Shown: positions 8,857-41,874 of the stretch, piece after piece
Numbering within the stretch: position 1 is the first letter of the stretch
Layout: the number at the start of each line of letters is the position of its first letter
From: a virus
Length of the DNA: 64,000 nt
Reading direction: 5' to 3' (one strand)
IMG/VR virus record: IMGVR_UViG_3300013947_000004
Program-made: the position numbers and the translations under genes
The notes under the pieces: generated by a model
Told to the model about the DNA's origin: nothing
The model's database searches: none
The model's input: only the letters and a program-made list of their open reading frames with translations

Positions 8857-9135
8857 ATGAAGAAATTAATTATCTTAATATACTTATTATTCACCCCTGT
8901 TTTACTTGTCTCCGTTGCCAATCCAGTTACCATTTATGCAAGCCAAGAAAGCTACGACGCAGGTTATCAAAGAGGTTATTTTTGTGGTAAAAATAATAGA
9001 ATGATACCAGATAATTTATACGAAATGGATAGTGATTACCAACTAGGGTTCGATAAAGGATTAAGCGATGGGAAAGATGAATTAGCCTACGAGATAAATA
9101 ACCATCAGAGCAATTCTGTAGTGGTTTGGGGTTAA
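8857..9135 (+). CDS. Secreted or membrane-anchored small protein.
   Basis: N-terminal signal-like LIILIYLLFTPVLLVSVA; last gene of the plus-strand island. Confidence 0.5.
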   Translation: MKKLIILIYLLFTPVLLVSVANPVTIYASQESYDAGYQRGYFCGKNNRMIPDNLYEMDSDYQLGFDKGLSDGKDELAYEINNHQSNSVVVWG

Positions 9136-23900: not shown

Positions 23901-24014
23901 TCTCCACCCATTACCACTTCTTGTTAATTCGATGTTCGCATATTCTTGAATAAATTGGGGAAAATCTATCTTCTGTCTGATAATATCTTTAATGTCCATT
24001 TCTAATTCCTCCAA
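20985..24014 (-). CDS. Primase / DnaB-like helicase fusion, interrupted by an intein.
   Basis: CHC2 zinc finger CPIHG..CFSC; TOPRIM motifs VVEGYMDA and FPDNDEPG. Walker A GVGK|T is split. Walker B MVFVDYFGYL. Confidence 0.85.
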   Translation of the reverse strand: MEELEMDIKDIIRQKIDFPQFIQEYANIELTRSGNGWRCACPIHGSSNPTSMLVDNKGMYYCFSCNSSGDVINFVADYDHITYNMAIEKLANMLNISLVDDATYQNEKALEAKMDSKKQKGVAGVEDVRSYLTEKRGFTAETIKTFELGGYEGKVTIPLIDPNGRTVGIAVRRFDGKPKYINSRNNILFDKSSFLYGLDKARRLIKDSVYVVEGYMDAISGYQMGLPTVAYCSNEIHRDQIKALSRYLRRETSIVIFPDNDEPGKKRLPRVRDYFRSIDSGRQVRVGIVPEEFKDMNDLLLAGVNPKTLPTEHIDKYVMRLLLAGCSTIEEEYQKAENYLPTVRSEMIRLDIIKFLAERWHKDTEDLKKYFNTIGQDSDDILKEASDIGECLNDLRQIYTTGGFKTHFEQIDNCIRRVEKKQVVVIGAYSGVGKALTLDSLIATPFGFVKMGDIKVGDIVFDEDGKETKVTHVFPQGEKDVYRVTFKDGSYVDCCEDHLWKFSTQNRIMKGKSWLVKPLKDIMSEYKLKRGTAGQQGWNLYIPVCSEVNYKKREHIISPYVIGLMLGDGGLSQRQITFTNPEVDIQEKLSYLTASFGHWHLHKGQPNQMCFCGGKNNPFVNYLRETFHGAKSCEKFIPDEYLFDSIENRIELVRGLIDTDGCVNDRGFTQFSSKSKRLIDGLNTLLNSLGVRCEMHYHVRKGKSSIPEYTLVIQKISDVWFSSKKHIERWNKRRNISRRVDRSKMAIVSIEKLKEKKEMQCITVDSPKHTYLCNNYIVTHNTDFAIEAMLRAICQDKMRVVFFSLEMPKGKLIERCVAKLIGCSMAEVEGYIRSSDTQVQNIISKLQNHLLIFDNNNYTINDIEKRIRLVNAKNLMGAPVDMVFVDYFGYLKGTSDFEGASASATKMKAIAKENNIIFVMLSQLNRGGNPYGEPNMTQLKLTGDLEASADIIMLLWRPGKDPNLSLEEKQQLENVTRIKIDKARDGMYGPNIAEFTYNKDTSRLEENYM
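21672..22712 (-). mobile_element. Class-3 intein (347 aa) with a LAGLIDADG endonuclease in the helicase P-loop.
   Basis: Ala435 to Asn781. Ala1 follows GVGK. Trp in block B (CEDHLW), Cys in block F (EMQCITV), Thr-His-Asn end (IVTHN|T). LAGLIDADG motifs YVIGLMLGDGG and LVRGLIDTDG. Confidence 0.8.
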
Positions 24015-24680: not shown

Positions 24681-25260
24681 TAATTAATTAATATCTACGC
24701 AGTACGTCATTCCTGCGTAGATACATCTTACTTAAATGCAAGCCGTGATAAATGCATTTGTTGGATTAAAACCTAACCAAGGAAAACATTAATTAAATAA
24801 TATCCATTGCCGAGGTAACTCGGCTTGGGATAACCCGAATGAACCGAAGGTGAATGAGGGTAGGGATTTTAAAAACTTAGCCAAGAAAAAAATTAAGTAA
24901 TTAATATCCCCCGCTCAAAGCTGGGGGATACTATTCTTTTAATTAATAAGGTACGTAGTACCTAATCCTAATTTCTTCCTTGGTTAATTAATTAAGTAAT
25001 ATCCCAAGCCAAGGTAACTTGGTAAGGGATATACCTTACGAATGAGCGAAGCGAATGAGTAAGGTTAGGATTAAATAAATAACTAAAAAAATAATTAATT
25101 AAATAATATCCATCACCGGGTTTAACCCGGTTTGGGATATACCGACCGAATGAACGAAGTGAATGAGGAAGGTTTTTCTTTACATTCTCTTTTCCCAATT
25201 CTCTTAAAAGATTCTTTTATAGGTTTCTTTTTTAAAGATTCTCTTTTAGTGCGTAATCCT
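24681..25260. repeat. Structured repeat array: putative replication origin or a tandem small-RNA array.
   Basis: Three ~80-nt units (24789-24865, 24985-25069, 25093-25172) with a covarying hairpin plus GAATGA sub-repeats. Three shorter hairpin units (24681-24730, 24892-24935, 24941-24965). Four ATTCT(C)TT iterons at 25183-25245. Confidence 0.6.
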
Positions 25261-25395
25261 TAATACCATTTGAAGCAGGTCGTTTTATACCAATTTTTAA
25301 AAATTAGTATATCTTTGCAAAAATTAATTCATATCAAAAGGTGGTTAAAGTTACGTTTTCTGTTATGTCTAGTGCGTAACTTTTTACACCACTTT

Positions 25396-27214: not shown

Positions 27215-28327
27215 TTGGAGGACATGGGAAAACGGGGAAATGGAGAGGGAACCTTATACCAAAGGAAGGATGGTAGTTGGTGTTCGCAGGCTACAATAAA
27301 CAGACGCAGGATTACCGCTTACGGGAAGACAAAAACCGAAGCTAGGGCTAAATTACGCAAGAAAATAGAAGGTTTCATGGTTGGTGGTTCAATAAATAAG
27401 GCAAAAATAACAATCTCTAAAGGGATTCAAATATTTACAAAGGAACACAAAGAAACAAATGAAAGAACCTCTACTTCATACAGAGAGCGTCTAGATATAG
27501 TAAACAAATATTTGGGAGAGGAATTGCTAAATAACTTAGATACAGACATGGCGGAAAAGTTGGTGTCCGATATGATAGAGTTTGGGTATTCTAGGAATAC
27601 AATTAAGTTGGTTCTAACCCAAGTCAAGAAATTGTTTTACTTTGCAAAGAAAACTGGATACATTGAGAAGAATAGATATCTTGGAAAGATACGGATAAAT
27701 AAAAAGACACCGAAATTCATTCTTCCAAAACTTGAAGATGTTGTCCAAGTTATCCAAGAAATAAAATCGGTGCCACTGAAATATTTGGCTATGTTCGGTA
27801 TTTATACTGGTCTTCGTAGAGGAGAATTATGTGGTTTGCAATGGAAAGACATTTCAGAAGATGGTGTTATAACCGTGATGAGAGAATATGTCGGGTATAA
27901 GAGAAGTAATTGTGAATTAGCACCGCCTAAAAATGGGATTGTTGGTCAAAAAGTTCAATCCCCAGAAGAAGGAATTGAACTATTAAAAGAATTACAAGAA
28001 TATTATAAAGAGAAAAGAATAGAAAGCGAATTTGTATTCTGCAAAAAAGATGGCAGACCTCTTTTACCAAAAACAGTGTCCACCGAACTTGGCAGGAGGA
28101 TAAAAAAAATAGCCCCTCACGGGGCTGTCCATATTTTAAGACATTTAAATGCTACTTTCTTAGCGTCACGGAATATTCCAATTAGAACAATTTCTATGCA
28201 GTTAAGACATAGCAATGTTTCTATTACAGACAAATATATAAATGAATTGATTGGTGAAAACAGGGATGATATAAAAAATCTTTCATTGGGTTGCAGTAAG
28301 GTTGCAGTAACTAAGAAAGAACCCTAG
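27215..28327 (+). CDS. int: Tyrosine integrase.
   Basis: GLRRGELCGLQW and HILRHLNATFL...LRHSNVSITDKY (R..HxxR..Y). Extended -10 TGATATAAT at 27194-27202. An alternative ATG lies at 27224. Confidence 0.85.
   Translation: MEDMGKRGNGEGTLYQRKDGSWCSQATINRRRITAYGKTKTEARAKLRKKIEGFMVGGSINKAKITISKGIQIFTKEHKETNERTSTSYRERLDIVNKYLGEELLNNLDTDMAEKLVSDMIEFGYSRNTIKLVLTQVKKLFYFAKKTGYIEKNRYLGKIRINKKTPKFILPKLEDVVQVIQEIKSVPLKYLAMFGIYTGLRRGELCGLQWKDISEDGVITVMREYVGYKRSNCELAPPKNGIVGQKVQSPEEGIELLKELQEYYKEKRIESEFVFCKKDGRPLLPKTVSTELGRRIKKIAPHGAVHILRHLNATFLASRNIPIRTISMQLRHSNVSITDKYINELIGENRDDIKNLSLGCSKVAVTKKEP
28289..28310 (+). repeat. Tandem GGTTGCAGTAA x2 at the 3' end of int.
   Basis: Exact 11-bp tandem repeat. 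Confidence 0.8.
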
Positions 28328-28485
28328 CATTCATCAGCTATTACGGGCATAATGACATATCAAGACTGATAGGGATACATTCCCTCACAAGAATCTAGGA
28401 ATTAAGCCGTTTACCGGGTTTACACCGAATTTTCTTTAGCTTATTATACAACATAAACAACATGAAATACTAAGAATGATAGCTC

Positions 28486-28508
28486 GGTTGCAGTAGTTAT
28501 TGCAGTAG
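28486..28508 (+). repeat. Second pair of TTGCAGTAG boxes just upstream of the XRE promoter.
   Basis: GGTTGCAGTAG followed by TTATTGCAGTAG, in the same orientation as 28289-28310. Confidence 0.75.
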
Positions 28509-28511
28509 AGT

Positions 28512-28540
28512 TTGATTTATAAGAAATGCTATGATATTAT
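28512..28540 (+). promoter_or_regulatory. Sigma-A-type promoter of the XRE gene.
   Basis: TTGATT, 17 nt, TATTAT. Confidence 0.55.
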
Positions 28541-28561
28541 GTGTATAAGAGGTGATTCAAA

Positions 28562-28897
28562 ATGATTGACTCGGTGGGAAGGAGAATAGCGGAGTTAAGG
28601 GTTAAAAAAGGGATGACACAAAGGGATTTAGCAAACGCCACTGGGATTGGGCAGGCTCTTATTTCTAGATATGAAGCTGGGCATTACAAATCTTTGAGGC
28701 TAAGTACGGCTGTAAAATTAGCAAAGGCATTAGGAACAACCCCAGATTATTTACGCAGTCCTGACAGCAATCTGCCATATCCTTCCGAAGTATTAAATTG
28801 GTTAGCAGACGAAAAGAATTACTCAAAGGTTATGGAAATATACTATGAGGATATGACAAGAAGAATGAAAGAAAGAAATAAAAAAGAAGCCCCCTAA
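28562..28897 (+). CDS. XRE-family HTH regulator (candidate repressor).
   Basis: RIAELRVKKGMTQRDLANATGIGQALISRYEAG. Confidence 0.8.
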   Translation: MIDSVGRRIAELRVKKGMTQRDLANATGIGQALISRYEAGHYKSLRLSTAVKLAKALGTTPDYLRSPDSNLPYPSEVLNWLADEKNYSKVMEIYYEDMTRRMKERNKKEAP

Positions 28898-28912
28898 TCG
28901 GGGGCTTTTGTT
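28887..28912. terminator. Bidirectional terminator between the XRE and dnaE genes.
   Basis: AAGCCCCC-TAATC-GGGGGCTT flanked by A- and T-runs. Confidence 0.65.
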
Positions 28913-31900
28913 ATGCTTGCTTTGCTTCCATAAACTCAAATATTCTGTTGTTTTTTACTTTCATAATATAAACTTTGTGTTTTTCAAATTGTTTGTATTT
29001 GTCGTTGAAAATGACCAAGTCTTTTACATAATCGTTATCTCTAACTTTCACAAAAGCCATTGGTTTGCCAGTTTTGGTCTTTCTTGCTTTTACGTCTAGA
29101 ACTTCGTACCCAAAAATAGTTACATTATTCACTAAAGACATGTTGTAATTTTGAAAAATATTCCCAAAACTGACACCTAAAACCTTCGACTCTTCCTCTT
29201 GCTCGTTATACGAACCTTGTGTATATTTAAACAAACCTTTAGATTTTCTTTTATCTTTCGCCCATTCAATGAATTGTAACATTTCTTCACGATTTCCTTT
29301 AAAAACTCCAGCTTTTACTAAGTTTGACAAACAAGTTTTATTTACAGATATAAACCGTTCTATAAATTGCTTAAATTCAGTTGGGGCATCTTTAGGGAAC
29401 TCATTTTTCCCCACGCCTGCGATACAATTTAAACCAAGGGTGATTGTTGGGCCATCTTCGTCATAGTCCGAGAAACAATTCTTATGCTTGAGCGTCGGGG
29501 GGAGAATTTTAATTCCATCCTTCTTGGCTTCCATTACATATCCTGCTAGCTTCCCCTTGTCCTTACAGTTGGAGTCTATAACAGACGCCCAAAATGCGGC
29601 AGGGTAATGACATTTGAGGTACGCTGTAACCCAAGCTGTCATCCCATATGCGGCAGAGTGGGAATTACTAACAATAATCCCGTTATTCACAAGGACTGTA
29701 TGGTATGGATGTTCCATTTCTATATCATAAACGCTTTCCATTCCTATAAGTTTTATAGATACAATTTTATCTTCTTCTAGTTCGTATCCATTCCCGCCTT
29801 GTCTTGTTCTTCCCATTTTATAATGCTCCTTTTTATGACAGGAAGTACATAACCATTCTAAATTTTCTGGAGAATTATCTTTTCTATCCCCGTTTTTGTG
29901 GTGCATTTCAAATCTAGTTTCTCCATCGTAGGATTTACCGCATACAGCACAAGGGTACTGATTGTAAATTGCAACCTTTTTAGCTTCTTCGAATAAGTAC
30001 CAATTACTGTCCATTTTTTCTTGGAATCCCTTTTGTCCTTTTTTGGGAATATTATCTGAGATACATTCTCTGTTTGTGAGTCGGTAATCATGGCTAACCT
30101 TCACTCTATCCCCTTTTATATAGACGAGTTCTCCTACCTTTAAATCCTTTAACATTTTCTTACCTTTTCTTGTTGGGAATTTATGATTGGCCGTGCATTT
30201 TACATATTTCCCAGACTCTGTTCTTACTTCGTACACGTAGTTCTTCCCAGAATAAAAAATGTCAACAATTTTATTTCGTTTGATTTTCCCATCTATAATA
30301 GATAACCCATATCCGTAACCATATCTATTGTACTTTTCCCACAAACTGAGGTGCTTATTTTCTTTTGCCCACTTTTTATCTGTTTTTGTTTTATACATTT
30401 CTTCGAGAGTTAAGGGTTTCCTTTCATTTATATTCCTATACAGGGTTGTTTCTCCAGACAAGCAATGGTTAAATCCATAGGAGGCAAATGTGACTATGTT
30501 ATCCGTGAGGTCTTTCATTTGTTTTTCTGTATACCCTCTCTGGACACCTCTTTTAATCATATCTGCTATGACTGGTTGCATTTCATCTTTAACCTTTCTC
30601 CCTATGATACGTCGTAGATTGTCAGCTTCTCCGAGTGAGTATCCGCATATCTTTTGTGCAATCTGCATGATTTGTTCTTGGTACACGATAACCCCTTCTG
30701 TATCTTTTAAGATTGGTTCAAGGTCTGGAATATCGTATATAGTCGGCTCTTGATGATTTCTGCGACGGAGGAACGTTTCTGCCATTCCACTATCGAGAGG
30801 CCCCGGTCTGCCCAAGGCTACCACTGAGGACAAGTCCTCTACGTTCTTTATCCCCATCCTCAGAACTATTCCTGTCATAACATTTGATTCAATCTGGAAG
30901 CAACCTGCAGTGTTCCCCCGACGCAACATTTCTGCTGTATCTTTGTCATCAATGGGAATATTGGCTATATTTAAAGAATCAATTCCAGCTCTATGTTTTG
31001 TTTTTTCTATAATGTCAAGAGTTTCTAGCCCAAGTATATCAAGTTTTAATAAACCTTGAGCTTCTAGCTGATGAAAGTCATGGCACACAACCATATTATC
31101 TTTCTGTTTTTCAATAGCTGTCCAATTAGTAACATCTTCTGGGCATACAAGAACAGCCGATGCGTGGCAACCATAGGAGATTATGTGGCCTTTAAATTTG
31201 AGGGCAAGCTCTTTCCATTCTTTTTCCTCTTTGGTTTTGGCACCCATATCCTCTACATTAACTATGTTTTTGGATTTGGCTATACGGATTTTGGGTTCAA
31301 TTCCCAAAGCCTCTCCAGCTCTCTGTATTGCTGATTTATCTTGGATATAGTTAATAGTACGGGCTTGGTATACTTCCCCATATTTGCTCTTGATATATTC
31401 TATTAATTCTTGTCTTCTTGGTGTAGATACATCGGAATCGATGTCAGCTGGAGTTACACGTTCTGGATTAGCAAAACGTTCAAATACGAGATTGTATTTG
31501 ATTGGGTCGAGTTGCGTAATCCCCATTAGATAGGCTGTTAAACTCCCAACAACAGACCCCCTACCTAACCCCATAGGAATGCCGGATTCTCGGCAATGTT
31601 TTAACATGTCGTCAATAATGCAAAAATAGTTGAGGTAGTTTAGTTTATTTAATACGTCAAATTCATGCCGTACTTGCTTTATGTATTGGTTACTATTGGG
31701 AAGTTTAGAAATTCCCAGTCTCTTAAATCCCTCGTTACACCTCTTCTTTACGTAAGTTGCAGGGTCATCACAAAATACGGGGTAGTGTTGTCCCCCGAAC
31801 TCAATTTCCACATTACATTTATCAACAATTTCTTGCACATTTTCAAGAGCTTTAGTAATGTCCATGCTATTGCTTTTAAACCATTTCACAATATCTTCTT

Positions 31901-32558
31901 CACTTTGGAGATAATAGTCATCAGATACATAGTACTGAGAATCATCACCTAAACCTAGCCACATCTTATGTACTGGAATATCTTCCTTGTTCACATAGTG
32001 ACTGTCAAGAGTAACAATCGTCTTCCCTAAATTTTCCCATTTTTTATTGTACTCTAATTGCTCTGGAAAATTATGGGGCTGAATTTCTACATATAAATCA
32101 TCACCAAAAATAGATAATAGGCGGGAATACATTTCATCTGCGTTTTCTGCACTAAGTGGCCCAGCTACACACGCTGTTGTACATACCAAACCTTCGTGGT
32201 ACTGTTCCAGAGCTTCAAAACTAATTCTCGGCTTACGGTAGAAATGTTCATGGGCGTATGTGTCCAACTTCATCATATTTCTGTAGCCTTTAATATCTTT
32301 GGCTAAGATTACGAGATGGTACGTGTCACACCCATTTACCGTGATTTCAGAAGCTAAATAAAATTCACACCCCAAGATAGGTTTTACTCCTTGTTTTTTG
32401 CACTCTTGGTAAAAATCTATTATCCCTGTGCATGTCCCATGGTCGGTTATTGCTAAAGCCGGGTATCCAAGGTCTTTAGCTCTACCAACTAGGTCGGGAA
32501 TTGTACAAAATGCATCATGGAGGCTATAGTCCGTATGCTGATGTAAGTTAGAAAACAT
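28911..32558 (-). CDS. dnaE: DNA polymerase III alpha subunit (PHP plus polymerase core), interrupted by an intein.
   Basis: N-terminal PHP motif HQHTDYSLHDA. The YGFNH|SHSAAY motif is split by the insert. Confidence 0.85.
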   Translation of the reverse strand: MFSNLHQHTDYSLHDAFCTIPDLVGRAKDLGYPALAITDHGTCTGIIDFYQECKKQGVKPILGCEFYLASEITVNGCDTYHLVILAKDIKGYRNMMKLDTYAHEHFYRKPRISFEALEQYHEGLVCTTACVAGPLSAENADEMYSRLLSIFGDDLYVEIQPHNFPEQLEYNKKWENLGKTIVTLDSHYVNKEDIPVHKMWLGLGDDSQYYVSDDYYLQSEEDIVKWFKSNSMDITKALENVQEIVDKCNVEIEFGGQHYPVFCDDPATYVKKRCNEGFKRLGISKLPNSNQYIKQVRHEFDVLNKLNYLNYFCIIDDMLKHCRESGIPMGLGRGSVVGSLTAYLMGITQLDPIKYNLVFERFANPERVTPADIDSDVSTPRRQELIEYIKSKYGEVYQARTINYIQDKSAIQRAGEALGIEPKIRIAKSKNIVNVEDMGAKTKEEKEWKELALKFKGHIISYGCHASAVLVCPEDVTNWTAIEKQKDNMVVCHDFHQLEAQGLLKLDILGLETLDIIEKTKHRAGIDSLNIANIPIDDKDTAEMLRRGNTAGCFQIESNVMTGIVLRMGIKNVEDLSSVVALGRPGPLDSGMAETFLRRRNHQEPTIYDIPDLEPILKDTEGVIVYQEQIMQIAQKICGYSLGEADNLRRIIGRKVKDEMQPVIADMIKRGVQRGYTEKQMKDLTDNIVTFASYGFNHCLSGETTLYRNINERKPLTLEEMYKTKTDKKWAKENKHLSLWEKYNRYGYGYGLSIIDGKIKRNKIVDIFYSGKNYVYEVRTESGKYVKCTANHKFPTRKGKKMLKDLKVGELVYIKGDRVKVSHDYRLTNRECISDNIPKKGQKGFQEKMDSNWYLFEEAKKVAIYNQYPCAVCGKSYDGETRFEMHHKNGDRKDNSPENLEWLCTSCHKKEHYKMGRTRQGGNGYELEEDKIVSIKLIGMESVYDIEMEHPYHTVLVNNGIIVSNSHSAAYGMTAWVTAYLKCHYPAAFWASVIDSNCKDKGKLAGYVMEAKKDGIKILPPTLKHKNCFSDYDEDGPTITLGLNCIAGVGKNEFPKDAPTEFKQFIERFISVNKTCLSNLVKAGVFKGNREEMLQFIEWAKDKRKSKGLFKYTQGSYNEQEEESKVLGVSFGNIFQNYNMSLVNNVTIFGYEVLDVKARKTKTGKPMAFVKVRDNDYVKDLVIFNDKYKQFEKHKVYIMKVKNNRIFEFMEAKQA
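29664..30464 (-). mobile_element. Class-1 intein (267 aa) with an HNH endonuclease in DnaE.
   Basis: Cys699 (CLSGETT) to Asn965 (IIVSN|S). Block B CTANH. HNH motif HHKNGDRKDNSPENLEWLCTSCHKKEH. No penultimate His. Confidence 0.8.
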
Positions 32559-32601
32559 AAAATCATTCCTTTCCTTTCTTTTTAAAAGTATATCTAACTA
32601 C

Positions 32602-32630
32602 ATTATACATACTTAAAACCACATAGTCAA
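32602..32630 (-). promoter_or_regulatory. Consensus sigma-A-type promoter of dnaE.
   Basis: Minus strand: TTGACT (32630-32625), 17 nt, TATAAT (32607-32602). Confidence 0.65.
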
Positions 32631-32661
32631 TTGGGGACATTGGGGATTTGAGTATGTAAAC

Positions 32662-32689
32662 AAAAAAAAAGCCACCCGTAATGGGTGGC
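32662..32689 (-). terminator. Terminator of the late operon.
   Basis: Minus strand: GCCACCC-ATTAC-GGGTGGC followed by T9. Confidence 0.75.
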
Positions 32690-32692
32690 TGT

Positions 32693-32812
32693 AATCACAA
32701 AATGCTGTTTTTTGTTAAAAATGGCTATTGGGAGGGCTGTTTTTGGGTATAACTATACTTCCACGTATAATTTAACCTAGAGGATACGATAGGGGTAAAA
32801 AATGGGCTTGAG
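32693..32812 (+). promoter_or_regulatory. Promoter-plus-leader cassette, copy B (-10 at 32766-32771), pointing antisense into the 3' end of the late operon.
   Basis: Block-for-block alignment with copies A, C and D. There is no plus-strand gene downstream. Confidence 0.5.
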
Positions 32813-32818
32813 AACATG

Positions 32819-33247
32819 TTATTTCGACATTGCAATAGCAGTTACGACTCCTGTTACTATCCAAGCCAATTTATTTTGTCTTTCTTTAATTGCTATCTTG
32901 TGAGTTAGGGAGTTTATTTGCTCTGTCAATGTCTGCAAATTCTCTTTCGATGTTTCCAATGAGTTGTTTGCATTCTGTAATGAGCTGTCCGCTCTCTCGA
33001 TTTGATTCCTCAAGATTTCCAATTGTTTCTTGTCCGTCTGAGAGTTCTCCTCTAGCATTTCCAATTTCGTCTTGAGCAGATTGAACTGATTTCTCAGTTG
33101 ATTGTACTGTTCGTATGACATCTCTACTTTCTGACTTGGCTGTTCTGTTACTGTCGTAGAGGATGCTTGCGAAAAGAATCCCGGAGATAGCAAAAAGAAC
33201 GAGAACAATATAAAGAAAAACCTTTTTTGAAATATAATTGTCCACAT
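32819..33247 (-). CDS. Membrane coiled-coil protein, last gene of the lysis cassette. A second fully nested ORF lies at 32886..33245.
   Basis: ATG with RBS GGAGGGG. N-terminal hydrophobic segment, heptad-rich middle, C-terminal TM LAWIVTGVVTAIAM. Confidence 0.5.
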   Translation of the reverse strand: MWTIIFQKRFFFILFSFFLLSPGFFSQASSTTVTEQPSQKVEMSYEQYNQLRNQFNLLKTKLEMLEENSQTDKKQLEILRNQIERADSSLQNANNSLETSKENLQTLTEQINSLTHKIAIKERQNKLAWIVTGVVTAIAMSK

Positions 33248-33257
33248 GGAACCCCTC

Positions 33258-33887
33258 CTATAATTTAGCTAATGCTTCGTGGCATTCACTATCAAAACGG
33301 TTATTTAAACTTTCTCTGAGTGACGAGCTATTCCACTCTGGAGTTTTGCATACATTATAGATAGCTACAATAAAATCATAGTCATACTGAGGGTCATCAA
33401 TATAAGACATATTTGGGTAGCCGCTATAATCATTATTGGCTTTGTTGTACATCGTATGACAAGCTTCTGTAAACATATTGAGGATTTCTCCCGGCCCATA
33501 CTGAACGGAACGGCTCCACACAACATCCTTCATAACCTCTGCGTGGTTTTCGATATGAAAATAGTTATCTGCTAATATTCTAATGGCGGGGTCATAGTAT
33601 GCGTGTTTAATATATTCGTATTGTGCTTCCCTAAATTCTTCTGTGTGGAACTCTGCAATATCTTTCCACTTCTGGTCAAATTCATCAGAGCATAATTCAC
33701 AACCTGCAAGTTCGTCAGCAAACCAATACCCTTGGGACTGGCACCATTGTACAAAAGCCTGTAAACTGCCAGCGTTTGAAGATAATTGGTATTCCCCATA
33801 CGATTTACCACCGGGGTCGCCCCAACCAGACGAGATACAGCCTACATCCCCATTAGATTCGTACTTAGATGATAATTCTCCTAACAT
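33258..33887 (-). CDS. Putative endolysin (lysozyme/transglycosylase-like).
   Basis: LSSKYESNGDVGCISSGWGDPGGKSYGEYQL, a Glu-Ser-x-Gly type motif. Immediately downstream of a holin-like gene. Confidence 0.45.
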   Translation of the reverse strand: MLGELSSKYESNGDVGCISSGWGDPGGKSYGEYQLSSNAGSLQAFVQWCQSQGYWFADELAGCELCSDEFDQKWKDIAEFHTEEFREAQYEYIKHAYYDPAIRILADNYFHIENHAEVMKDVVWSRSVQYGPGEILNMFTEACHTMYNKANNDYSGYPNMSYIDDPQYDYDFIVAIYNVCKTPEWNSSSLRESLNNRFDSECHEALAKL

Positions 33888-34204
33888 TTATCTTCCTCCT
33901 TTTTCTTCTGTTGCGGACAATATGTAACTACTGGTGGTGGAGTTGGAAATTGCCCTCTAGGGCTGTTTTTCGTGGAATCAACCAACCACTTCATTAAGCC
34001 TACCAACCCCATCCCGCAAGCACTAATCCCTTGCCAACAGGAGTCTATCTGGAAGTGGGTTCCATAGAGTCCATTACTCCAATAACCAAAAGTCCAAGAA
34101 AATAATACAACCATAGCCGCAACGATACCAAATGTCATACAGATGTGACCAATGTTCTTTTTTACTGTTCTAAAAAACTTCTGTGTCCTAGTTATTTCTA
34201 TCAA
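33881..34204 (-). CDS. Holin-like protein.
   Basis: Two TM segments (ICMTFGIVAAMVVLFSWTFGYW and GISACGMGLVGLMKWLV) and a charged C-terminus. Confidence 0.5.
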   Translation of the reverse strand: MIEITRTQKFFRTVKKNIGHICMTFGIVAAMVVLFSWTFGYWSNGLYGTHFQIDSCWQGISACGMGLVGLMKWLVDSTKNSPRGQFPTPPPVVTYCPQQKKKEEDKC

Positions 34205-34553
34205 CTCTTTCCTGTAAAGAATCTATGCGGGTCTCAATAGAATCAAATCTTGCGTCAAAACGAGCTTCGTCAATTTTCATCTGCTGTTGCCCCGCTCTTA
34301 AATCTTCCACCAATTTTGATAATGCTGTGATGCTATTGACTAGTTGGTCATATTTAGAGGAGAGAATCTTCGTCCTTTCGTTCTGATGTTCTTCTCTCTC
34401 TTTTTCTTTTTCTTCTTTTACCTTTTCCAGTTTTTCCTTCCATTCACGCTCCTGGTCACGGTGGTCGAAATAAGGTTTTAAAATGTACTGCCTAAAACCC
34501 CCTAGGGCTGTGCAGAGAAGGATTAGTCCTTCTACAACCAAAGTAAATTCCAT
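34188..34553 (-). CDS. Membrane-anchored coiled-coil protein.
   Basis: N-terminal TM, then a K/E-rich helix. Confidence 0.5.
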   Translation of the reverse strand: MEFTLVVEGLILLCTALGGFRQYILKPYFDHRDQEREWKEKLEKVKEEKEKEREEHQNERTKILSSKYDQLVNSITALSKLVEDLRAGQQQMKIDEARFDARFDSIETRIDSLQERVDRNN

Positions 34554-34560
34554 AATTCCC

Positions 34561-34592
34561 CCCTTGAAAGGAAAGCCCCCATAAGGGGGCTT
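34561..34592 (-). terminator. Weak terminator or attenuator after the giant gene.
   Basis: Minus strand: AAGCCCCC-TTAT-GGGGGCTT followed by TCCTTTC. Confidence 0.4.
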
Positions 34593-34595
34593 ATA

Positions 34596-37500
34596 CTACT
34601 CACTAAATGCTTTAGCTGATTTAGCCAAACTCTGAAGTTCTTTATTGTTCTTCGGGATAGATTTCATCTTCATGTCTATGGAAGTCGTATCTTTTGTTTT
34701 TAGAACTTTCACAATTTGGGAATCTGTCATACCATAAATTTTAAGAGCATCGTAATTTTCCCCATTCGGGTTTTTTATATACTCTTGTTTAGCTTTAGCG
34801 ACTTCTGCTGTATACTTTTTCTTCATAACCCCTAAAACTTTATTGGCGTCAGCGGCGTTATTTTCGCTAACAGGTTTAAATCCTAAGAGCTTCATGAATC
34901 TGTCCGTTGCCGAATAATGGGAAACTGTATCCCCGTAGCTATTTTTGTAGTCCCCAGAAATGGCACTTTGGATTTGCCCTGCACGAGGAGCTATCTGTTT
35001 GAGGACTCCAGTGAATGCGGCAGGAACACTTTCCGCTCCCATAATAGCTTGACCAACACCTTTTGCTGTACTGTACGTCGGGCCTAAACTTGGAGTAAGG
35101 GCATCACCCATCCCGATACGAGAGGATAAGTTAACTCCCGCTAATGTGGGAGCTCCATACAGAGCTACGTTTACGAGTGCTTTCTTAGAAGCACTTCCCC
35201 CTGCCCAGTCAATCATAGCTTTTCGCATCATAAGCCCCGGGCTTGTCCCAGTAACAGAGTCGATGACATCATCAAATAAATCAGCCGCTGGTGCCCCTGT
35301 CGCCCCTGTAAGAATCAACATTGGAACGAGGAATTTCACATTCTCTTTCAATGTATTATTTCTCATAAAGTTGATTGTAAACAGAGGATATTTCTGGAAC
35401 TGTAAGAGTAGTTTACCAGTCTGCCCCGCCATAGCAAACGCCTGAGGGGAATTAACAGGGCTATAGTCAAAGTTCGTTTCTGTTACAGTTTTCTTCGCAT
35501 AATCCATTGCGTACTTTTCTTTTACATCTTCCATACTAATCTTTCCGTTAGATTTCTTTACAATGGATTTATAGAGAGCATCTTTTTTATCTTTTGGTAA
35601 CGCATCGAAGTTATCTTTGCCTTTTATATATGCTCCAATAGCCGTGGCTTTACGAGCAAAAATATCACCTTTGTTGAAGAAATACATGGACTTTTCTGCA
35701 ACATCTTCGAGGGAATGCCCACCGAGTACTTTCCGTTTCTTTTCAAATGCTCCCGGTGTATGTCCAATATCTTCAGCCTCTATTGCAATGCTTCTATCAT
35801 TAATCCCGACGTGCTTAAATAACTTGTCATACGTATCTTTCTTTCCTTGGAGCTTAATCCCTTGAAGCAGGTACTTTTCGCCAATTTTAGCGTTGGCATT
35901 CAAGAGCTGTGCCGCCTGCACAATCATAGCAGATGGGTTTGCCATACCTAGTTTTGTGTAGTTCTGTGTACGAATAACTTTTCTTGTAAGGTCAAAATAC
36001 GGGGTGTCTGTGTGATGGCGTCTAGCAAATCTCCCAATAGCCCCCGTCCTATTTTCTATCTTTCCAATAAAGTCTGTCATGACACTGTTAACAAGATTAT
36101 CAAAAGCAGAGACGGAACGAGGAGCTTCTATCGTCTTAATATATGTTTTCAAGAATTTCTGTTCGTTTGTAGCAGGAGGGTCGTTTACATCTCTTCCGTA
36201 CATTTCTTTGTAAGCCGCTGTTGCTTCCGCCTTAAACTTAGCTTTAGCTACATAGTTAGCCATTGTGCCAAGGTATCTCCATGTAGAGTCTTCGACATTT
36301 TTACTAAACCCATTCATCGTTTCGGGGTTATCTAACCGACCTTGGAAGTAGGGGTTAAACTTTGCTTTCATATTGGCATTGTTAATTAACATAGATAATT
36401 CATCTTTACTAATTGTTTCAGAGGTTCTTCTGCGTAGTTTATCTATAAGCTTGGTATTTTTCATTTGAGCTTTTACCATCTCTACAACTCGGTTATGAAT
36501 CGCATTCTTGGTATTTGAGTTCCATTTCTTCATAATCGTATTTGCTCTATCCATAACATCTTTGACGGGGATAACATCTTTATCTTTGAAGATTTTAGAC
36601 AACATAGCTCGCTTTAACTGATTGTTATATTCTCCTTCTGCAACATCATCGCTGTCTTTTAAATAACCTTCTTCTCTCAATTCTTCTATTTGCTTTGGGG
36701 TGAGCCGCTCTGAGCTATTAAGTTTTGTAGATAATGCGACTGTGTCCATGGGAGTCATTTTGAAAGATTTAGCTTTTATTTCTCCATCCTCTGCCCCCTT
36801 ATTAATATTCTGAACGTATTCTTCTGCGTCCAAAGCGTTGTAGAAAGAATTTGTTCTTACCCAGCTACCGTCGGAATCTTTTTCCATAACGACGTAGGGC
36901 AAGTGGACGTGTGGGAAATATCCATTACGTTTCTTAGGTAGTTTCGTAGCCGCACCTGCGTCTATTGCCGCACGGACAGAATCGTTATAAATATCGTCAA
37001 AGAATTTTTCATTCTTCGCAAATGCATTAATTACACTCTTGATATTTTCTGGTTTGTACGAGGAATCCCCGTATCTCCCGTCAATCTGGTTTAACATTCC
37101 AGTAACAGCCCGTGCATAATTTCGTTTAGCGAAACTGTTAGCGGACTCTTCGCTCCTGAATGCGGAACTCCCTTTGGAGAGGGCATATACAGTAAAGCCA
37201 CGGTTTCTTTCGGAGCCAGCATCTTCCAAAGAATCTCGGAGGGAGCCGACCATTTTATATTCCCCAGATTTTTTAAGCTCTGCTACTTTTTTAGCGGCTT
37301 CCACACTTGACTTGTAATGTTCTATGTACCCGTTATGGTCTAAGGCTAAGTATACATTGCCAATCTTCTGTACCTGCATAGGAGAACGACCCATTTTATC
37401 TGCGTGCAGAATAAGTCTATCTAATGCCGCTATCTGGGATTTGTTCAATCCTTTACGGATGTCAAGGTATTTCTGCGTATATTCTAATGTCTTGTCCCGA

Positions 37501-40500
37501 CTCTTCCTATACGCTTCATCAGCTAATTCATAGATGTGTCTTGCCTTCTTCGGTAGGTATTTTTCAAAAATTTCTTGCGGATTTTTTAAGAATCTGCCGA
37601 TAGTCCCCAACTTGTTATCAGACTTAATTTTACTGCCAATAATGGAATCTAAAGCTCCACGGATAATGGCACTTTTTGTGGCGTCATTAGCATCTTTCAC
37701 TCCGTGTTTCCGTACTTGTTTTCCGACGATTTCTTGTTTTTCCTTCTTTAACTGAGCTTTACCAACCTGTTGCATTGGGGAGCTTTCTCTTTCATATACT
37801 TCTCCAGATTTGATTTTACTAAATACTTCCTGCACCGATGGTGTGCGTTCGGAAATAATGCCAAGTTTGGATGCCATATCTTTAATCTTATTCCAAATGC
37901 TCTTGAATATGCCAGATTTCGGAATTTCAGATTTGCCTAACGCCCAATCACGGTATGCGTCAGCTTGCACTTCTTCATTAGTCCCAAAAGCTTTTTCGAG
38001 AGCTTTTATTTCGGAATCTTTCAACCCCATCATTTTGGCCACATGGAACGCTTCGTGGAAAGCCGTTCCTTTCCCTGTACCATTAGCCAACTGAACATAG
38101 ATATTATCCCCCTTGTTTTGAGTGTATCCGAGGACTGTTACATTCTCCGACCCTTTAATTCCATGTTCTTCTTTTGCTCTTTGTAACTGCTCCCCAGTAA
38201 GGAATACCTTGTTAACAATATCAAAGGTTATCTTTCTACCGTTAGGCATTGTAAATTCTACAGAAGTGTTTGTCACGTTGGTTATTTTGGCGTTGGGGAT
38301 TATATCTCGGATTTCTTTTTTTGTATTTTCCATGTGAGATTGTGGCACATCCCCAAGTTGGGATTTGCCAAAAATTCCATCAAGGACTTCTTTTTCTTCT
38401 TTGGAGATTTTCTTCCCTCTTTGTCTTATATTCTTTCTTGCTTCTAATGCCTTTTCATCATCCGCTTTTTTTATTTCTTCTGATTTTTCAGACTCTTTTC
38501 TTTGTATGTCGTAAGCAAGTTTTTCTTTCCCTGTCAGGGATTCTCTAAATCCGTCAGGCTCCTTCCCCCCAGTAGCGAGGGCGTTTTTGATAGTGACGGT
38601 TTTCCCATCTTTGCCAATTTCTATAGAAGTCTTCGAGCTGGATGTAATCTTATGTTCCTTTTCGAGGTAGTCCAACACATCATCTTTTTCCGCTTTGCTT
38701 AAAGGGACGTCTTTCCCGTGCCAATCTTTTACTTTCCCAGAGGGGATGGTTACTTTTGCGTCGAAACTGCCTTCCCCGTCTTTGAATTTAGAATTGGAAA
38801 TAGTAACAGGATTCGATTTCTTCGATTCCAATCCCTCTACTTTAATTCCCATGCTTTCTAACTTAGCTAATTCTTCTTTGGAGTATGTCTCCAACTGTCT
38901 CTTTTGTAAGGCAATCTTCCCAGATTTTTTAGCCTTTTTAATTTCGTTTTCTGCGTCATAGTATTCTTTTACACTGTTAGGGATAACGTCAGGATTATTC
39001 AGTCCTTTATCATTTACTTTTTGTCCTTTGAATTTATCGTAAAGAGGTTGGAACTCTTTCTTAATTTTAGCAACTTCATCCGGATATAAGAGAGAGTCTA
39101 TAACAGCGTTACGGTTTCTGTTAGTGGGAACTTTGTCTCCATGGATAGCTTCATGCACTCTCTGAATAAACCCTTTCACCTTTTTAGTCCCGCTCATAGC
39201 CATACGTGCATTTTTTCTATCTTTAACCGATGTCTTGGGGGTAGGTGTAATCTGTTCACTAACTTTCGGTGTATTCTGAGGTAGTTGTTCTACTTTCTGA
39301 GCTTTGGGAGTTTTTTGAACTTTCCCACCATCTTTAACAGTATTGATTGCATCAATAACCCGTTTACGGTCTTTAAGAGAAAGTTTCTTTAATTCTGCGC
39401 TAACTGAAGCTCTATTTTCAGGAGTGCTAGGGTAACTACTGGAATCCTTTCCATTTTCTTTCAGGTCTTTAATCATAGCATTAGCTGATTTTTTAGACTC
39501 TTTCATTACCTTAGCTCTTGCATTTTTTAACTGCTGTTTTTGGTTAACGGAAATGGGTAAGGAAACAATTTCTTTGTTATTTTCGTCCATGTATTGAGAC
39601 TGGACACCGTTCTTCTCTAAATCTTCTTTAATGGATGCTACCTTGTTGAATACCTGTTTCCGTTGCATTTTTTTGCTTTGTTTTGTAGCTCTATTTGTTT
39701 CAGCCGTGATAACGTTCTGAATTTTTTCATGAGAAGCATCTACCCCAAGTTCGGATAATTTCTGTTGTGCCGTTTCGGATAATTTACCGTCTGGGGCGTA
39801 GTAAATAGAATTAGTGCCATTTTCCCGCAAATCTTTTTTGATTTCGTTTTTAACGTCCTTTACTTTAGCTTCTTGGTTAGTTCTTGCTTCTCTAGCCCTT
39901 TTTTCTTTTTCTCTTACTTGTTCCCCATATTGGTTAATAAGAGCTACATCAGGGGACGGAGATGTTGCATTGGAAACGTATATTTCGGGGGGAGTATTCC
40001 CCAAAGCTTTATCACGAGCAATTAAATCGTTTGCACTGGCTCGGTTAGCTTCGTCTACTGCCCGTTTATTGATAATATCAATAACTCCTTTTGCATCTGC
40101 TGGAGTTTGGATTTCTGGGAAGTCTGGGGATTTAATTAAACCTTCAATAGCCTGTTTACGTTCTTGTCCTTTTAATTCGTGTGGGGATTCAGACACTGGG
40201 TTTACAGAAAGGCTACGGAAATTTCCGTCAGCATCGGTTGTACCTGCTAACTGCAAAGCCATATTAGCCAAAGTTTGATTCTTTTCGAACGTGGGGTCAA
40301 CATTTCCATTTTCGTCTGTAAAGAGAGTTCTTTCGTAAGTGTCACGAGGAGATACTGTGCTTAATGTATTTGTTAATTCGTTTACCCTTGCGTCAGTAGG
40401 CAAATCAGCTTCACTTGTAATTTCATCATTTACAGTTATTGGACTATTTGTGACAAGGTTGTTGTAGAGAGTAGTCGCATCTTCGTTGCTTAAACCCGCT

Positions 40501-41717
40501 AAAGAATCCCCTTCTGCATTTTCTCGGAGTTCTTCTCTTGCTATATTTATTTCTGGGTTTTGGATTTCCCCGATACTGCTTTGTTCTTTGCTATCCTCAA
40601 TAGATTCGCTAATACGCCCACGTCGATGACCAACCGAACCAAGAAATGCAAGAGGCCCGAACCCAATAGCGGCTTGTGCCATTTGGTCTTTAGAAGAATC
40701 CTGCATATCGAATGGATTGTATTCTATCGGCGTATCGTTGATAGAATAGTTTTCCAACTCATTCTGCAATCCTTCCGTGTAAGATTCGGCGGCAATACCC
40801 GGAATACCACGGGTAGCAAACCGTTTAAGTAATCCCGTATCTGACCAGTCGGCAACCTTTTCACCTGCATTAGCAATGGCATTTACAAGTCCCGAACCTT
40901 CTTTTTCTGCAATCCGTTCACCAGAAGACAATAATCTGCCGGGGGCTTTCATAACCCCTTTAACCATACCCATTTCGATACCGTTTTGGATTGTACCTAA
41001 GAGCATGTTTACGCCGAAGTCGGTCATTGCGCTATCCATTGCAGAATCTCTATCCATCCCTTGAGAGATAGCATCTTGGTATGTCTGTCCAGTTTCCCTA
41101 GTAGCATCAATAAAGCCGCCGATGGCGTTCTTGGCGGCAAATTCTCCAACAACCTTACCGCCATCAGCTAAAGCTCCAAGAAGTTTACTTCCACCCGATA
41201 CAGCTCTGCCTACTTCGCTAGCTTTTTCTGCGAGAGAAGCCGCACGCCCTGCCATGCCTACTGCACGGACGGCACCTCTAGCACTAAGACTTGCAACAGA
41301 ACTCATCCCGCCAGTAATAGCTAATGCGGCTAAATCAGGAGCTACATTACCAACAGTCATACCTATTGTGCTTGTTAAACCTTGCGGGTCGGTAACATAT
41401 TCCCAAGGATTGCTCTTTATATCTTCCCAAGAATATTCTTTTGTGGGTGCTCTGCCATATTCTAAACTCCGCCCAAGGTTAGAGAGTCCCTCCCCGATAC
41501 CAATATCGGGAGTGCCTAATTTATCGCCAAGGACATCTAAGCCAGCACCAAAAGTGTCTAAAGTTCCGCCGAGTCCGTATATTGCTGAATTTAAATAACT
41601 GTCAAGGAATCCCCCATCCCCGTAATGGGGGGTAGGGGCTAAGTCTGGATTAAGGGCGTCATTTCCGAACGCTGAACTTACAGCATAACTATATGGGTAT
41701 GCACCTAAAAGTGCCAA
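34596..41717 (-). CDS. Giant (2373 aa) virion-associated multidomain protein with a zincin HExxH motif; polyvalent or ejection-protein-like.
   Basis: TTG start. G/A-rich N-terminus and long K/E-rich linkers. TAFHEAFHVAK (HEAFH encoded at 38043-38057). Hydrophobic G/A-rich C-terminal segments. Follows the hydrolase-carrying internal proteins. Confidence 0.5.
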   Translation of the reverse strand: MALLGAYPYSYAVSSAFGNDALNPDLAPTPHYGDGGFLDSYLNSAIYGLGGTLDTFGAGLDVLGDKLGTPDIGIGEGLSNLGRSLEYGRAPTKEYSWEDIKSNPWEYVTDPQGLTSTIGMTVGNVAPDLAALAITGGMSSVASLSARGAVRAVGMAGRAASLAEKASEVGRAVSGGSKLLGALADGGKVVGEFAAKNAIGGFIDATRETGQTYQDAISQGMDRDSAMDSAMTDFGVNMLLGTIQNGIEMGMVKGVMKAPGRLLSSGERIAEKEGSGLVNAIANAGEKVADWSDTGLLKRFATRGIPGIAAESYTEGLQNELENYSINDTPIEYNPFDMQDSSKDQMAQAAIGFGPLAFLGSVGHRRGRISESIEDSKEQSSIGEIQNPEINIAREELRENAEGDSLAGLSNEDATTLYNNLVTNSPITVNDEITSEADLPTDARVNELTNTLSTVSPRDTYERTLFTDENGNVDPTFEKNQTLANMALQLAGTTDADGNFRSLSVNPVSESPHELKGQERKQAIEGLIKSPDFPEIQTPADAKGVIDIINKRAVDEANRASANDLIARDKALGNTPPEIYVSNATSPSPDVALINQYGEQVREKEKRAREARTNQEAKVKDVKNEIKKDLRENGTNSIYYAPDGKLSETAQQKLSELGVDASHEKIQNVITAETNRATKQSKKMQRKQVFNKVASIKEDLEKNGVQSQYMDENNKEIVSLPISVNQKQQLKNARAKVMKESKKSANAMIKDLKENGKDSSSYPSTPENRASVSAELKKLSLKDRKRVIDAINTVKDGGKVQKTPKAQKVEQLPQNTPKVSEQITPTPKTSVKDRKNARMAMSGTKKVKGFIQRVHEAIHGDKVPTNRNRNAVIDSLLYPDEVAKIKKEFQPLYDKFKGQKVNDKGLNNPDVIPNSVKEYYDAENEIKKAKKSGKIALQKRQLETYSKEELAKLESMGIKVEGLESKKSNPVTISNSKFKDGEGSFDAKVTIPSGKVKDWHGKDVPLSKAEKDDVLDYLEKEHKITSSSKTSIEIGKDGKTVTIKNALATGGKEPDGFRESLTGKEKLAYDIQRKESEKSEEIKKADDEKALEARKNIRQRGKKISKEEKEVLDGIFGKSQLGDVPQSHMENTKKEIRDIIPNAKITNVTNTSVEFTMPNGRKITFDIVNKVFLTGEQLQRAKEEHGIKGSENVTVLGYTQNKGDNIYVQLANGTGKGTAFHEAFHVAKMMGLKDSEIKALEKAFGTNEEVQADAYRDWALGKSEIPKSGIFKSIWNKIKDMASKLGIISERTPSVQEVFSKIKSGEVYERESSPMQQVGKAQLKKEKQEIVGKQVRKHGVKDANDATKSAIIRGALDSIIGSKIKSDNKLGTIGRFLKNPQEIFEKYLPKKARHIYELADEAYRKSRDKTLEYTQKYLDIRKGLNKSQIAALDRLILHADKMGRSPMQVQKIGNVYLALDHNGYIEHYKSSVEAAKKVAELKKSGEYKMVGSLRDSLEDAGSERNRGFTVYALSKGSSAFRSEESANSFAKRNYARAVTGMLNQIDGRYGDSSYKPENIKSVINAFAKNEKFFDDIYNDSVRAAIDAGAATKLPKKRNGYFPHVHLPYVVMEKDSDGSWVRTNSFYNALDAEEYVQNINKGAEDGEIKAKSFKMTPMDTVALSTKLNSSERLTPKQIEELREEGYLKDSDDVAEGEYNNQLKRAMLSKIFKDKDVIPVKDVMDRANTIMKKWNSNTKNAIHNRVVEMVKAQMKNTKLIDKLRRRTSETISKDELSMLINNANMKAKFNPYFQGRLDNPETMNGFSKNVEDSTWRYLGTMANYVAKAKFKAEATAAYKEMYGRDVNDPPATNEQKFLKTYIKTIEAPRSVSAFDNLVNSVMTDFIGKIENRTGAIGRFARRHHTDTPYFDLTRKVIRTQNYTKLGMANPSAMIVQAAQLLNANAKIGEKYLLQGIKLQGKKDTYDKLFKHVGINDRSIAIEAEDIGHTPGAFEKKRKVLGGHSLEDVAEKSMYFFNKGDIFARKATAIGAYIKGKDNFDALPKDKKDALYKSIVKKSNGKISMEDVKEKYAMDYAKKTVTETNFDYSPVNSPQAFAMAGQTGKLLLQFQKYPLFTINFMRNNTLKENVKFLVPMLILTGATGAPAADLFDDVIDSVTGTSPGLMMRKAMIDWAGGSASKKALVNVALYGAPTLAGVNLSSRIGMGDALTPSLGPTYSTAKGVGQAIMGAESVPAAFTGVLKQIAPRAGQIQSAISGDYKNSYGDTVSHYSATDRFMKLLGFKPVSENNAADANKVLGVMKKKYTAEVAKAKQEYIKNPNGENYDALKIYGMTDSQIVKVLKTKDTTSIDMKMKSIPKNNKELQSLAKSAKAFSE

Positions 41718-41763
41718 ATTAAACCACCGCCTTGTCTAAATAAAAACATTAGAATGTCACGTC

Positions 41764-41874
41764 ATAGAATGCTTAAAATTGTCAAAATCACCCTTCTGGA
41801 GGGCATTTTTTAGGGGTAACTATCTCTCTAGGTATAATTGCCCTAAAGAAAAAGTTACTCTTTAAAAATAGCTT
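41764..41874 (+). promoter_or_regulatory. Promoter-plus-leader cassette, copy C (-10 at 41833-41838), antisense inside the late operon.
   Basis: Block-for-block alignment with copies A, B and D. Lies in the 157-bp gap between two minus-strand genes. Confidence 0.5.

Follow-up and report, generated by a model that had tools for sequence, protein, structure and literature searches.

A conserved promoter-like cassette antisense to the lysis module in a family of uncultivated phages

The end of the late operon and its phage

The stretch of DNA analyzed here (64,000 nucleotides; "the window" in the following) is a nearly complete phage genome of about 65 kb. A gap at positions 32559-32818 separates two of its minus-strand genes, those of Pol III alpha (with an HNH intein; "Pol" in the following) and of a 142-aa protein, and holds the terminator of the late operon, copy B of a cassette that is present four times in the window (copies A to D) and the promoter of the Pol gene (Table 1). 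Direct reading confirmed all coordinates that a previous sequence-only reading had given for copy B and its TATAAT, and orientation and gene calls agree that the element lies antisense to the minus-strand genes at 32819-41717. The terminator is a GC-rich stem-loop directly before a U-run on the transcribed (minus) strand. It closes a late array of approximately 33 kb that runs on the minus strand from terL (start at 813) across the ends of the window and through the virion genes, the gene of a 2373-aa protein and the lysis genes to position 32690. [quoted passage not shown]

Table 1. Coordinates of copy B, its parts and neighbors, the other cassette copies and the genes discussed in the text (positions in the window)
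Feature	Position	Strand	Remarks
Copy B	32693-32814	+	found by nhmmer; begins about 3 nt from late-operon terminator
Upstream box CAYAR-AATGCT-N5-TTGTYA	32693-32717	+	candidate activator/regulator site
Fixed 48-nt spacer	32718-32765	+	T-run 32740-32744; weak -35-like TTGGGT 32743-32748
-10 hexamer TATAAT	32766-32771	+	inside conserved A-N-G-TATAAT-TT
Predicted start and non-coding leader	32778-32818	+	placed from the -10 position; ends at stop codon of last lysis-module gene
Late/lysis operon intrinsic terminator	32661-32690	-	stem 32670-32690 (8 bp, 6 GC, 5-nt loop), then 9 U
Pol III alpha gene	28911-32558	-	HNH intein
Pol III alpha promoter TTGACT-17-TATAAT	32630-32602	-	near-consensus sigma-70, 11/12 matches; neighbor, outside cassette
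Copy A	24142-24020	-	sense; 50 nt upstream of primase-helicase gene
Primase-helicase gene	20985-24014	-	LAGLIDADG intein
Copy C	41762-41881	+	antisense; fills 157-nt gap between 456-aa and 2373-aa genes
Copy D	1143-1259	+	divergent from terL; heads 1-kb ORF-poor stretch and plus-strand cluster 2270-9135
terL	1-813	-	Hint/LAGLIDADG-like intein
Integrase gene	27215-28327	+	lysogeny pair
HTH_3 repressor-like (CI-like) gene	28562-28897	+	lysogeny pair
Lysis module	32819-34553	-	four genes; opposed by predicted transcript
Last lysis-module gene	32819-33247	-	142-aa signal/coiled-coil/TM protein
Endolysin gene	33258-33887	-	VgrG3-like, lysozyme-type
Holin-like gene	33881-34204	-	small membrane protein
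Gene of 121-aa TM/coiled-coil protein	within 32819-34553	-	small membrane protein; lysis module
2373-aa late protein gene	34596-41717	-	no Pfam, PHROG or PDB sequence match

Copy B combines a perfect -10 hexamer with a -35 region, TTGGGT, that matches the sigma-70 consensus TTGACA (sought 16-18 bp upstream; the preference of the host RNA polymerase may differ) at only 3/6 positions, and for this reason a scan for sigma-70 consensus promoters omits it. Unlike the conserved extended motif around the hexamer, copy B in the window has no G at -14, and the hairpin of its leader is decayed. If transcription starts 7 nt past the -10, the upstream box would be centered at about -71.5. A PWM scan of the window found this box only within the cassettes, without a convincing copy near the CI-like gene, and we therefore rejected the idea that it is a general operator. 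Two other candidates were likewise discarded: a promoter formed by the box itself (ATCACA-16-TGT-TAAAAT in copy A) is unconserved in other copies and lineages, and no hidden minus-strand promoter within the cassette is consistent across lineages.

The same phage is carried at >99.8% identity by at least 22 metagenome contigs of 52 to 65 kb length, and samples in which it occurs include ERZ808294, SRR1747038 and ERZ27300215. Its virion genes include an SU10-type portal and capsid, and it further encodes NrdD, a dUTPase, Rad52 and an SNF2 helicase. Its own integrase and CI-like gene, together with relatives found as prophages, mark the phage as temperate on genomic grounds. One such relative (L191) is a prophage of Megasphaera elsdenii (GCA_016899685.1) in which host genes adjoin the repressor gene, and two others (L192 and L194) are also integrated, with host genes directly after the repressor gene. 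Because host genes begin at this place in all three, the attP of the phage would lie between integrase and repressor (about 28328-28561). The hint to the host came from the name of one Pol homologue, and this single Megasphaera prophage suggests a host within the Negativicutes; a search of genome contigs with Pol gave distant matches only. No DNA match to isolate phages was found, and the closest known phages are only about 30% identical in Pol and portal. Uncultivated and abundant, these temperate phages of anaerobes form a family that includes the Megasphaera prophage. The three inteins of the window interrupt essential genes (Pol III alpha, primase-helicase and terL; Table 1), and many relatives have intein-less versions of these proteins (Pol of 948-953 aa, primase-helicase of 657 aa and TerL of 471 aa).

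Conservation of copy B in related phages

Relatives were fetched from viral, metagenome and assembly collections with Pol, the holin-like protein and other proteins as queries; in the search with TerL, intein matches dominated, apart from P0137. The 12 relatives fetched at 64-87% Pol identity make up about six distinct sequence types and all have an equivalent of copy B; they include L192 and L193 (87%), L191 and L011 (79%), L194 (76%), L001, L003, L029 and L002 (73%), L004 (70%) and L195 (64%). The nhmmer E-values of these equivalents range from 1e-17 to 1e-29, with a weaker value of 9e-5 for L195. Each equivalent is flanked by the last late-strand gene and the late terminator, always in antisense orientation. 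Anchored on the hexamer, ten B-equivalents align ungapped over about 115 nt (no indels except 1 nt in L004) and share one register, composed of terminator stem, 10 nt, ATGCT, 5 nt, TTGTnn, 48 nt and TATRAT. The spacer has 48 nt in all four copies of the window and 9/10 aligned equivalents (49 nt in L004), and the sequence of the spacer itself is poorly conserved. The -10 reads TATAAT in eight of the ten and TATGAT in the other two; only position -9 of the hexamer varies (A/G), and T-12, A-11 and T-7 are invariant.

Among four B-equivalents, the extended -10 has the highest identity (0.90), followed by the terminator (0.77) and the upstream box (0.75); the rest has 0.39-0.52, with about 40% in the spacer that flanks the box, and this is the footprint that a working -10 with a phased upstream site would be expected to leave. 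The promoter-like character ascribed to copy B in the sequence-only reading is borne out by the place, orientation and spacing kept in 12/12 relatives and by the three invariant positions of the hexamer. Such conservation points to selection on copy B and makes a functional promoter much more likely; we regard it as quite probable that B is an active promoter. Because it has been kept at that very spot in all 12 relatives, it probably makes antisense RNA. The -35 is unrecognizable in L194 and L001 and reaches 5/6 matches, at 18 bp, only in L002 and L004. Given that the conserved box lies upstream of a weak or absent -35, dependence on an activator is suggested. The lineages with 70-79% Pol identity have a GC-rich hairpin and T-run in the spacer; a strong GC hairpin of this kind just upstream of the promoter is seen in L191, L011, L002, L004 and L194, a 4-bp stem in L001 and a 5-bp stem in copy C of the window, and no stem-loop in copy B of the window, L192 and L193.

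The late terminator has been conserved along with the cassette. The nine B-equivalents from relatives with 70-87% Pol identity share its stem, in which two changes are compensatory; in L195 another hairpin takes this place. A hairpin with an A-run is present in all ten aligned relatives, and the ATGCT core always lies exactly 10 nt from the terminator stem. This fixed distance, the restriction of the upstream box to the cassettes and the missing -35 would all suit a conserved block that is no promoter at all, with an incidental TATAAT in a protein-binding or RNA-end element that serves the late terminator in termination or mRNA 3'-end stability. We consider such a role very unlikely, since the hexamer varies only at -9 in the pattern of a working -10 and copies A, C and D have no adjoining terminator. 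Moreover, copies A and D face downstream genes while B and C appear as reverse complement in the late mRNA, so that no single reading at the level of RNA suits all copies.

Two relatives have insertions between B and Pol, an HNH endonuclease gene in L191 and a Dam methylase gene in L194, and in both cases B has remained next to the terminator and the end of the lysis module. Because B keeps this place when genes separate it from Pol, it does not seem to be tied to the regulation of Pol. The junction between late terminator and Pol is an insertion hot spot, with these two inserts at 9166-10014 in L191 and 9701-9979 in L194 and an unrelated insert of 1.6 kb in L196.

That B follows the lysis end rather than Pol upon insertions also bears on the idea of a transcription-primed R-loop replication origin like oriF and oriG of phage T4, in which the non-coding transcript would prime the leading strand beside the polymerase gene. 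With T4 oriF/oriG, copy B has in common a seemingly factor-dependent promoter with a sigma-70-type -10 and a non-coding transcript, and T4 minimal origins have about 100 bp with promoter and unwinding element (PMC3016281). An origin would further fit the single copy in most relatives (within the partial-genome DNA that was fetched) and the positions of B beside the Pol gene and of A beside the primase-helicase gene. Unlike the T4 origins, however, copy B has no A+T-rich unwinding element (AT content at +1..+50 of 0.62 in the window vs 0.61 genome-wide, and of 0.54-0.76 across lineages vs a locus background of 0.50-0.61), and there is no GC-skew shift at 32.7 kb. A better, separate candidate with iteron-like repeats lies inside the replication module, and we find an origin at B highly improbable. 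This other region (24700-25300) contains three to four units of about 56 nt, each with an AT-rich TAATTAATTAAATAATATCC and a GC hairpin, in a 730-nt gap of the module, and comparable gaps are seen in L001, L193 and L195; it is a candidate iteron-type origin.

The distribution of copy B was also compared to that of the lysogeny genes. L195 keeps B without an integrase or repressor at the syntenic place. Conversely, L196 (57% Pol identity) has the same gene order with integrase and repressor present and no cassette, and its terminator abuts the last lysis gene. Because B occurs without the lysogeny genes in one relative and the lysogeny genes without B in the other, a purely lysogenic role is unlikely, and the lack of the cassette in L196 suggests that the function of B is dispensable or replaceable over longer distances. 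A role in the lysogen would be attractive for a temperate phage with integrase and HTH_3 repressor-like gene on the same strand as B and with three relatives integrated as prophages (L191, L192 and L194): B would then be active in the prophage, where its antisense RNA would silence leaky expression of holin and endolysin as a safety device instead of a lytic timer. Besides the distribution in L195 and L196, this is contradicted by the presence of the same cassette before the primase-helicase gene, which should be off in a lysogen, and we rate such a device as quite unlikely.

The four copies of the cassette and their history

The four copies in the window are recovered with nhmmer E-values of 5e-23 to 6e-27 by a profile built from the copies themselves. 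They have in common the upstream box, the 48-nt spacer, in which a T-run and a weak -35-like TTRGGN are seen (TTGGGG in A, TTAGGG in C and TTAGGT in D), the A-N-G-TATAAT-TT motif and a leader that contains a hairpin and YTGAGRGY before a T-rich stretch. The -10 is TATAAT or TATGAT in copies A, C and D as well as in copy A of L193. The 5' leader hairpin is well formed in A and D, also present in the B-equivalents of L002 and L004, and decayed in B and C. Copy A also has a GGAGG ribosome-binding site and an ATG, and both A (in the window and in L193) and D are placed in sense orientation upstream of genes, as expected of a promoter cassette. Ahead of B and C lie the 3' ends of genes on the opposite strand, and in the 1 kb downstream of D no convincing ORF is seen. 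From the copies before the primase-helicase gene and the plus-strand cluster one might assign the cassette to a pre-late class, a tentative and lineage-specific assignment. In the sequence-only reading, B had been placed in the same class as the promoters of the replication genes, which holds insofar as copy A is of the same kind but overstates the case, given the ordinary consensus promoters of Pol and other replication genes.

Copies A, C and D are patchily distributed. Copy A occurs in the window and the 87% clade (L193) only and is absent in L001 and L195, where the primase-helicase gene lies within about 20 nt of the preceding ORF. Copy C is limited to the lineage of the window; the 87% and 73% relatives lack it, and the respective junction measures 14-30 nt in L192, L193 and L183. 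Copy D is absent at the equivalent place in L197, the single relative checked (about 75% DNA identity). An exact-pattern scan of 2.9 million viral contigs gave one match in each of three related contigs, always the B-equivalent, with a pattern that is blind to D-type copies and missed the B-equivalent of L004. As far as partial contigs can tell for copy numbers in relatives, the fetched stretches of most of them show no copy other than B. With A, C and D missing from most relatives and B kept, copy B appears to be ancestral, and the comparison marks A, C and D as later dispersals in the lineage of the window. The earlier picture of a replication promoter that had been placed head-on to the lysis genes thus reverses the likely history, in which the antisense copy B came first and copy A later. 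Seen in this way, the comparison would document a promoter cassette that spread within a genome and was co-opted from antisense to sense, a small example of the rewiring of a phage circuit.

The first 28 nt of A and B, comprising the upstream box, are identical in the window and differ in L193, which indicates that both copies have been homogenized by gene conversion. Together with copy numbers that differ between close relatives and with copy C, which fills an otherwise 14-30-nt junction, this could mean that the cassette is a self-dispersing regulatory module spread by recombination, for which the PeSL elements would be a precedent (PMC4122927), and that antisense transcription from B and C is a tolerated by-product without a role in lysis. 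We see this as unlikely for the cassette as a whole: it fits copy C well and copy B poorly, because B is fixed in place, orientation and register in 12/12 relatives with a clear footprint, which is more than one would expect of neutral or selfish DNA. Apart from cassettes A, C and D, whose presence varies between close relatives, variable elements of the locus include the HNH and Dam genes inserted beside B in L191 and L194; no ORF bracketed by two cassette copies was seen.

T4-like phages have repeated terminator-promoter cassettes, called PeSL/PmSL, whose set varies from one close relative to the next (PMC4122927, PMC2839356). Similar to them, the cassette described here is a repeated intergenic element (four copies in the window) of variable copy number with a leader, in which Shine-Dalgarno sequence and start codon are found in copy A only; a stem-loop directly before the promoter is seen in part of the lineages. 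However, PeSLs have recognizable -35/-10 pairs, all face a downstream ORF and flank shuffled ORFs, whereas our cassette has a weak -35 and a box at about -71.5, its ancestral copy is antisense and without an ORF, and the stem-loop has been lost in the clade of the window.

It is conceivable that the cassette is a factor-dependent module whose original and, in this phage family, universally kept job is antisense transcription into the last part of the late operon as a brake or clock on lysis, and that in the lineage of the window its copies before the primase-helicase gene and the plus-strand cluster would enable a single box-binding factor to couple the onset of replication with lysis being held back. 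We offer this as a speculation that is much more likely to be wrong than right.

The surroundings of copy D have several features of their own. Between terL and cassette D, positions 815-1140 form a divergent control region, in which three ATTCCCGTRT...AACAGT repeats (about 943-1060) follow a perfect palindrome of 21 bp, TTAAACAGTAAAACTGTTTAA (about 889-909). These repeats and the palindrome look like operators, and the region could be the main switch of the phage. Downstream of the cassette, 1230-2160 (approximately 1 kb) shows no convincing ORF and no Rfam match. Direct repeats are found there, as are patches of high GC content, and the role of this stretch may be that of a non-coding RNA, of a packaging site or another one altogether. 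The direct repeats are AATGGCTTA(acc/gtt)ATGCGGTT at 1399-1425 and 1452-1478 and GAAGCCCCACCCC at 1128-1140 and 1354-1366, and the motif AATGGCTTAACCATGCGG downstream of cassette D recurs at the same place in L197. No relatives of the plus-strand cluster were found in viral contigs with the two of its proteins that were used as queries.

Predicted antisense transcription and the lysis module

The timing of lysis sets the burst size and fitness of phages and is usually explained at the level of proteins by holins and antiholins. In the reading that we prefer for copy B, an activator or other factor would bind the upstream box at its fixed distance and enable a promoter with a weak -35, and the predicted plus-strand transcript would start near 32778 and run head-on into the 3' end of the late operon. 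Convergent RNA polymerases would then collide, and/or the antisense RNA would pair with the distal late mRNA. The strongest effect would be expected on the last genes of the operon, those for lysis, whose expression would be lowered or timed relative to the upstream virion genes, and late transcription passing over B just before the terminator would occlude B in turn. That copy B is a genuine promoter and makes a non-coding antisense transcript that damps or times distal lysis-gene expression has, as a complete explanation, about an even chance of being right in our judgment. If true, a conserved antisense promoter would add a transcriptional layer to the timing of lysis, and copy B offers a defined mutational target of 120 nt.

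Whether the transcript could encode a protein was judged from the ORFs downstream of B. The sequence-only reading had seen no plus-strand ORF with a ribosome-binding site there. A 33-codon ORF does exist at 32803-32904, with AGGGG 6 nt before its start, but no ORF in the direction of the cassette is conserved across the family. ORFs of 30-34 codons in the direction of B are found in the window and the clade with 87% Pol identity only, with GTG instead of ATG as the start in the clade, and a SNP (G32795A) weakens the putative Shine-Dalgarno sequence of the 33-codon ORF in 3/6 near-identical strains. We rejected a small protein encoded downstream of B, which would lack a good Shine-Dalgarno sequence and has no corresponding ORF in L194 and L002.

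Consistent with the previous claim that no plus-strand terminator is nearby, there is no strong plus-strand terminator after B before the hairpin of copy C (41791) and a bidirectional terminator (47567), and the hairpins between B and the copy C hairpin have 3 GC pairs only and occur at chance frequency. Rfam gave no match at gathering thresholds (only sub-threshold terminator-like matches in E-value mode), the first 300 nt of the predicted antisense RNA have no excess of structure compared to shuffles (z = -0.5), and RNAalifold yielded no consensus for the leaders, which align poorly. An untranslated antisense transcript of more than 1.8 kb would be a likely target of Rho. Because Rho may shorten an untranslated RNA, effects of B are perhaps limited to the last one or two genes. 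The suggestion that B fires into the giant gene of the 2373-aa protein, more than 1.8 kb away, finds no support in these data, and such a reach is doubtful.

Promoters that face a lytic transcription unit and act by collision and/or antisense RNA are known from phage lambda with paQ and oop. The same arrangement is found in coliphage 186 with pR and pL (PMC5001618). Copy B shares with these cases the orientation towards a lytic transcription unit and the possible mode of action by polymerase collision and/or antisense RNA. The 186 and lambda cases concern the lysis-lysogeny switch or a late activator gene over tens to hundreds of bases, whereas the target of B would be the distal end of the late operon, and B shows no strict co-occurrence with lysogeny genes.

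Antisense transcription over late genes has also been described for other phages. In LUZ19, one promoter of the phage polymerase (P001) is reversed and its transcripts overlap structural genes, and P001-like motifs are near-identical at matching positions, the antisense one included, in 15 other Phikmvvirus species (PMC10914365). Both P001 and copy B are promoters directed against a one-stranded gene array with antisense transcription over late genes, mapped for P001 and predicted for B, and with conserved position and orientation. P001 is, however, a 20-bp promoter of a single-subunit phage RNA polymerase with a mapped start that belongs to the early region and is directed at the end of the genome, compared to about 120 nt with a sigma-70-type -10, a distal upstream box, a predicted start and a position at the 3' end of the late/lysis operon for copy B. 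The Pseudomonas phage PAK_P3 makes about 20 early antisense RNAs, mostly in the structural region, that were proposed to suppress leaky late expression (PMC4933390). What B would have in common with them is antisense transcription over late genes, but the PAK_P3 RNAs were detected by RNA-seq, lie mostly inside genes and belong to a virulent myovirus, whereas B is one ancestral intergenic promoter, known from prediction only, of a temperate podovirus-like phage. Copy B resembles LUZ19, PAK_P3 and PeSL in part and is homologous to none of them, and the functional kind is already known; what sets B apart is that the antisense copy is the ancestral one and that its architecture is unusually rigid.

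We also asked about the lysis module and the giant gene themselves. A scenario in which the cassette travels as part of a mobile lysis module was rejected, with L012, L060, L013 and others sharing the holin-like gene without the cassette. Likewise, the 2373-aa protein does not qualify as a virion RNA polymerase that reads the cassette, with no DxDxD motif and no match in the databases listed in Table 1. Its homologues in all relatives have 2383-2729 aa, its residue 1221 lies near an HEAFH (HExxH-like) motif, and it may belong to the ejected virion proteins. An antisense ORF inside its gene (35146-35445, plus strand) has 50-55% amino acid identity to antisense ORFs in relatives, probably as a by-product of the conserved sense frame. 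At the other end of the module, two same-strand frames overlap at 32819-33247 (142 aa) and 32886-33245 (119 aa); gene callers picked the 119-aa frame on public contigs, and the 142-aa frame is better conserved (38-48% vs 29-34% identity to relatives). Finally, a perfect 8-bp GC hairpin without a clear U-run, AAGCCCCCTTATGGGGGCTT, lies between the 2373-aa gene and the lysis genes at 34569-34590 and might serve the late operon as an internal processing or attenuation site.
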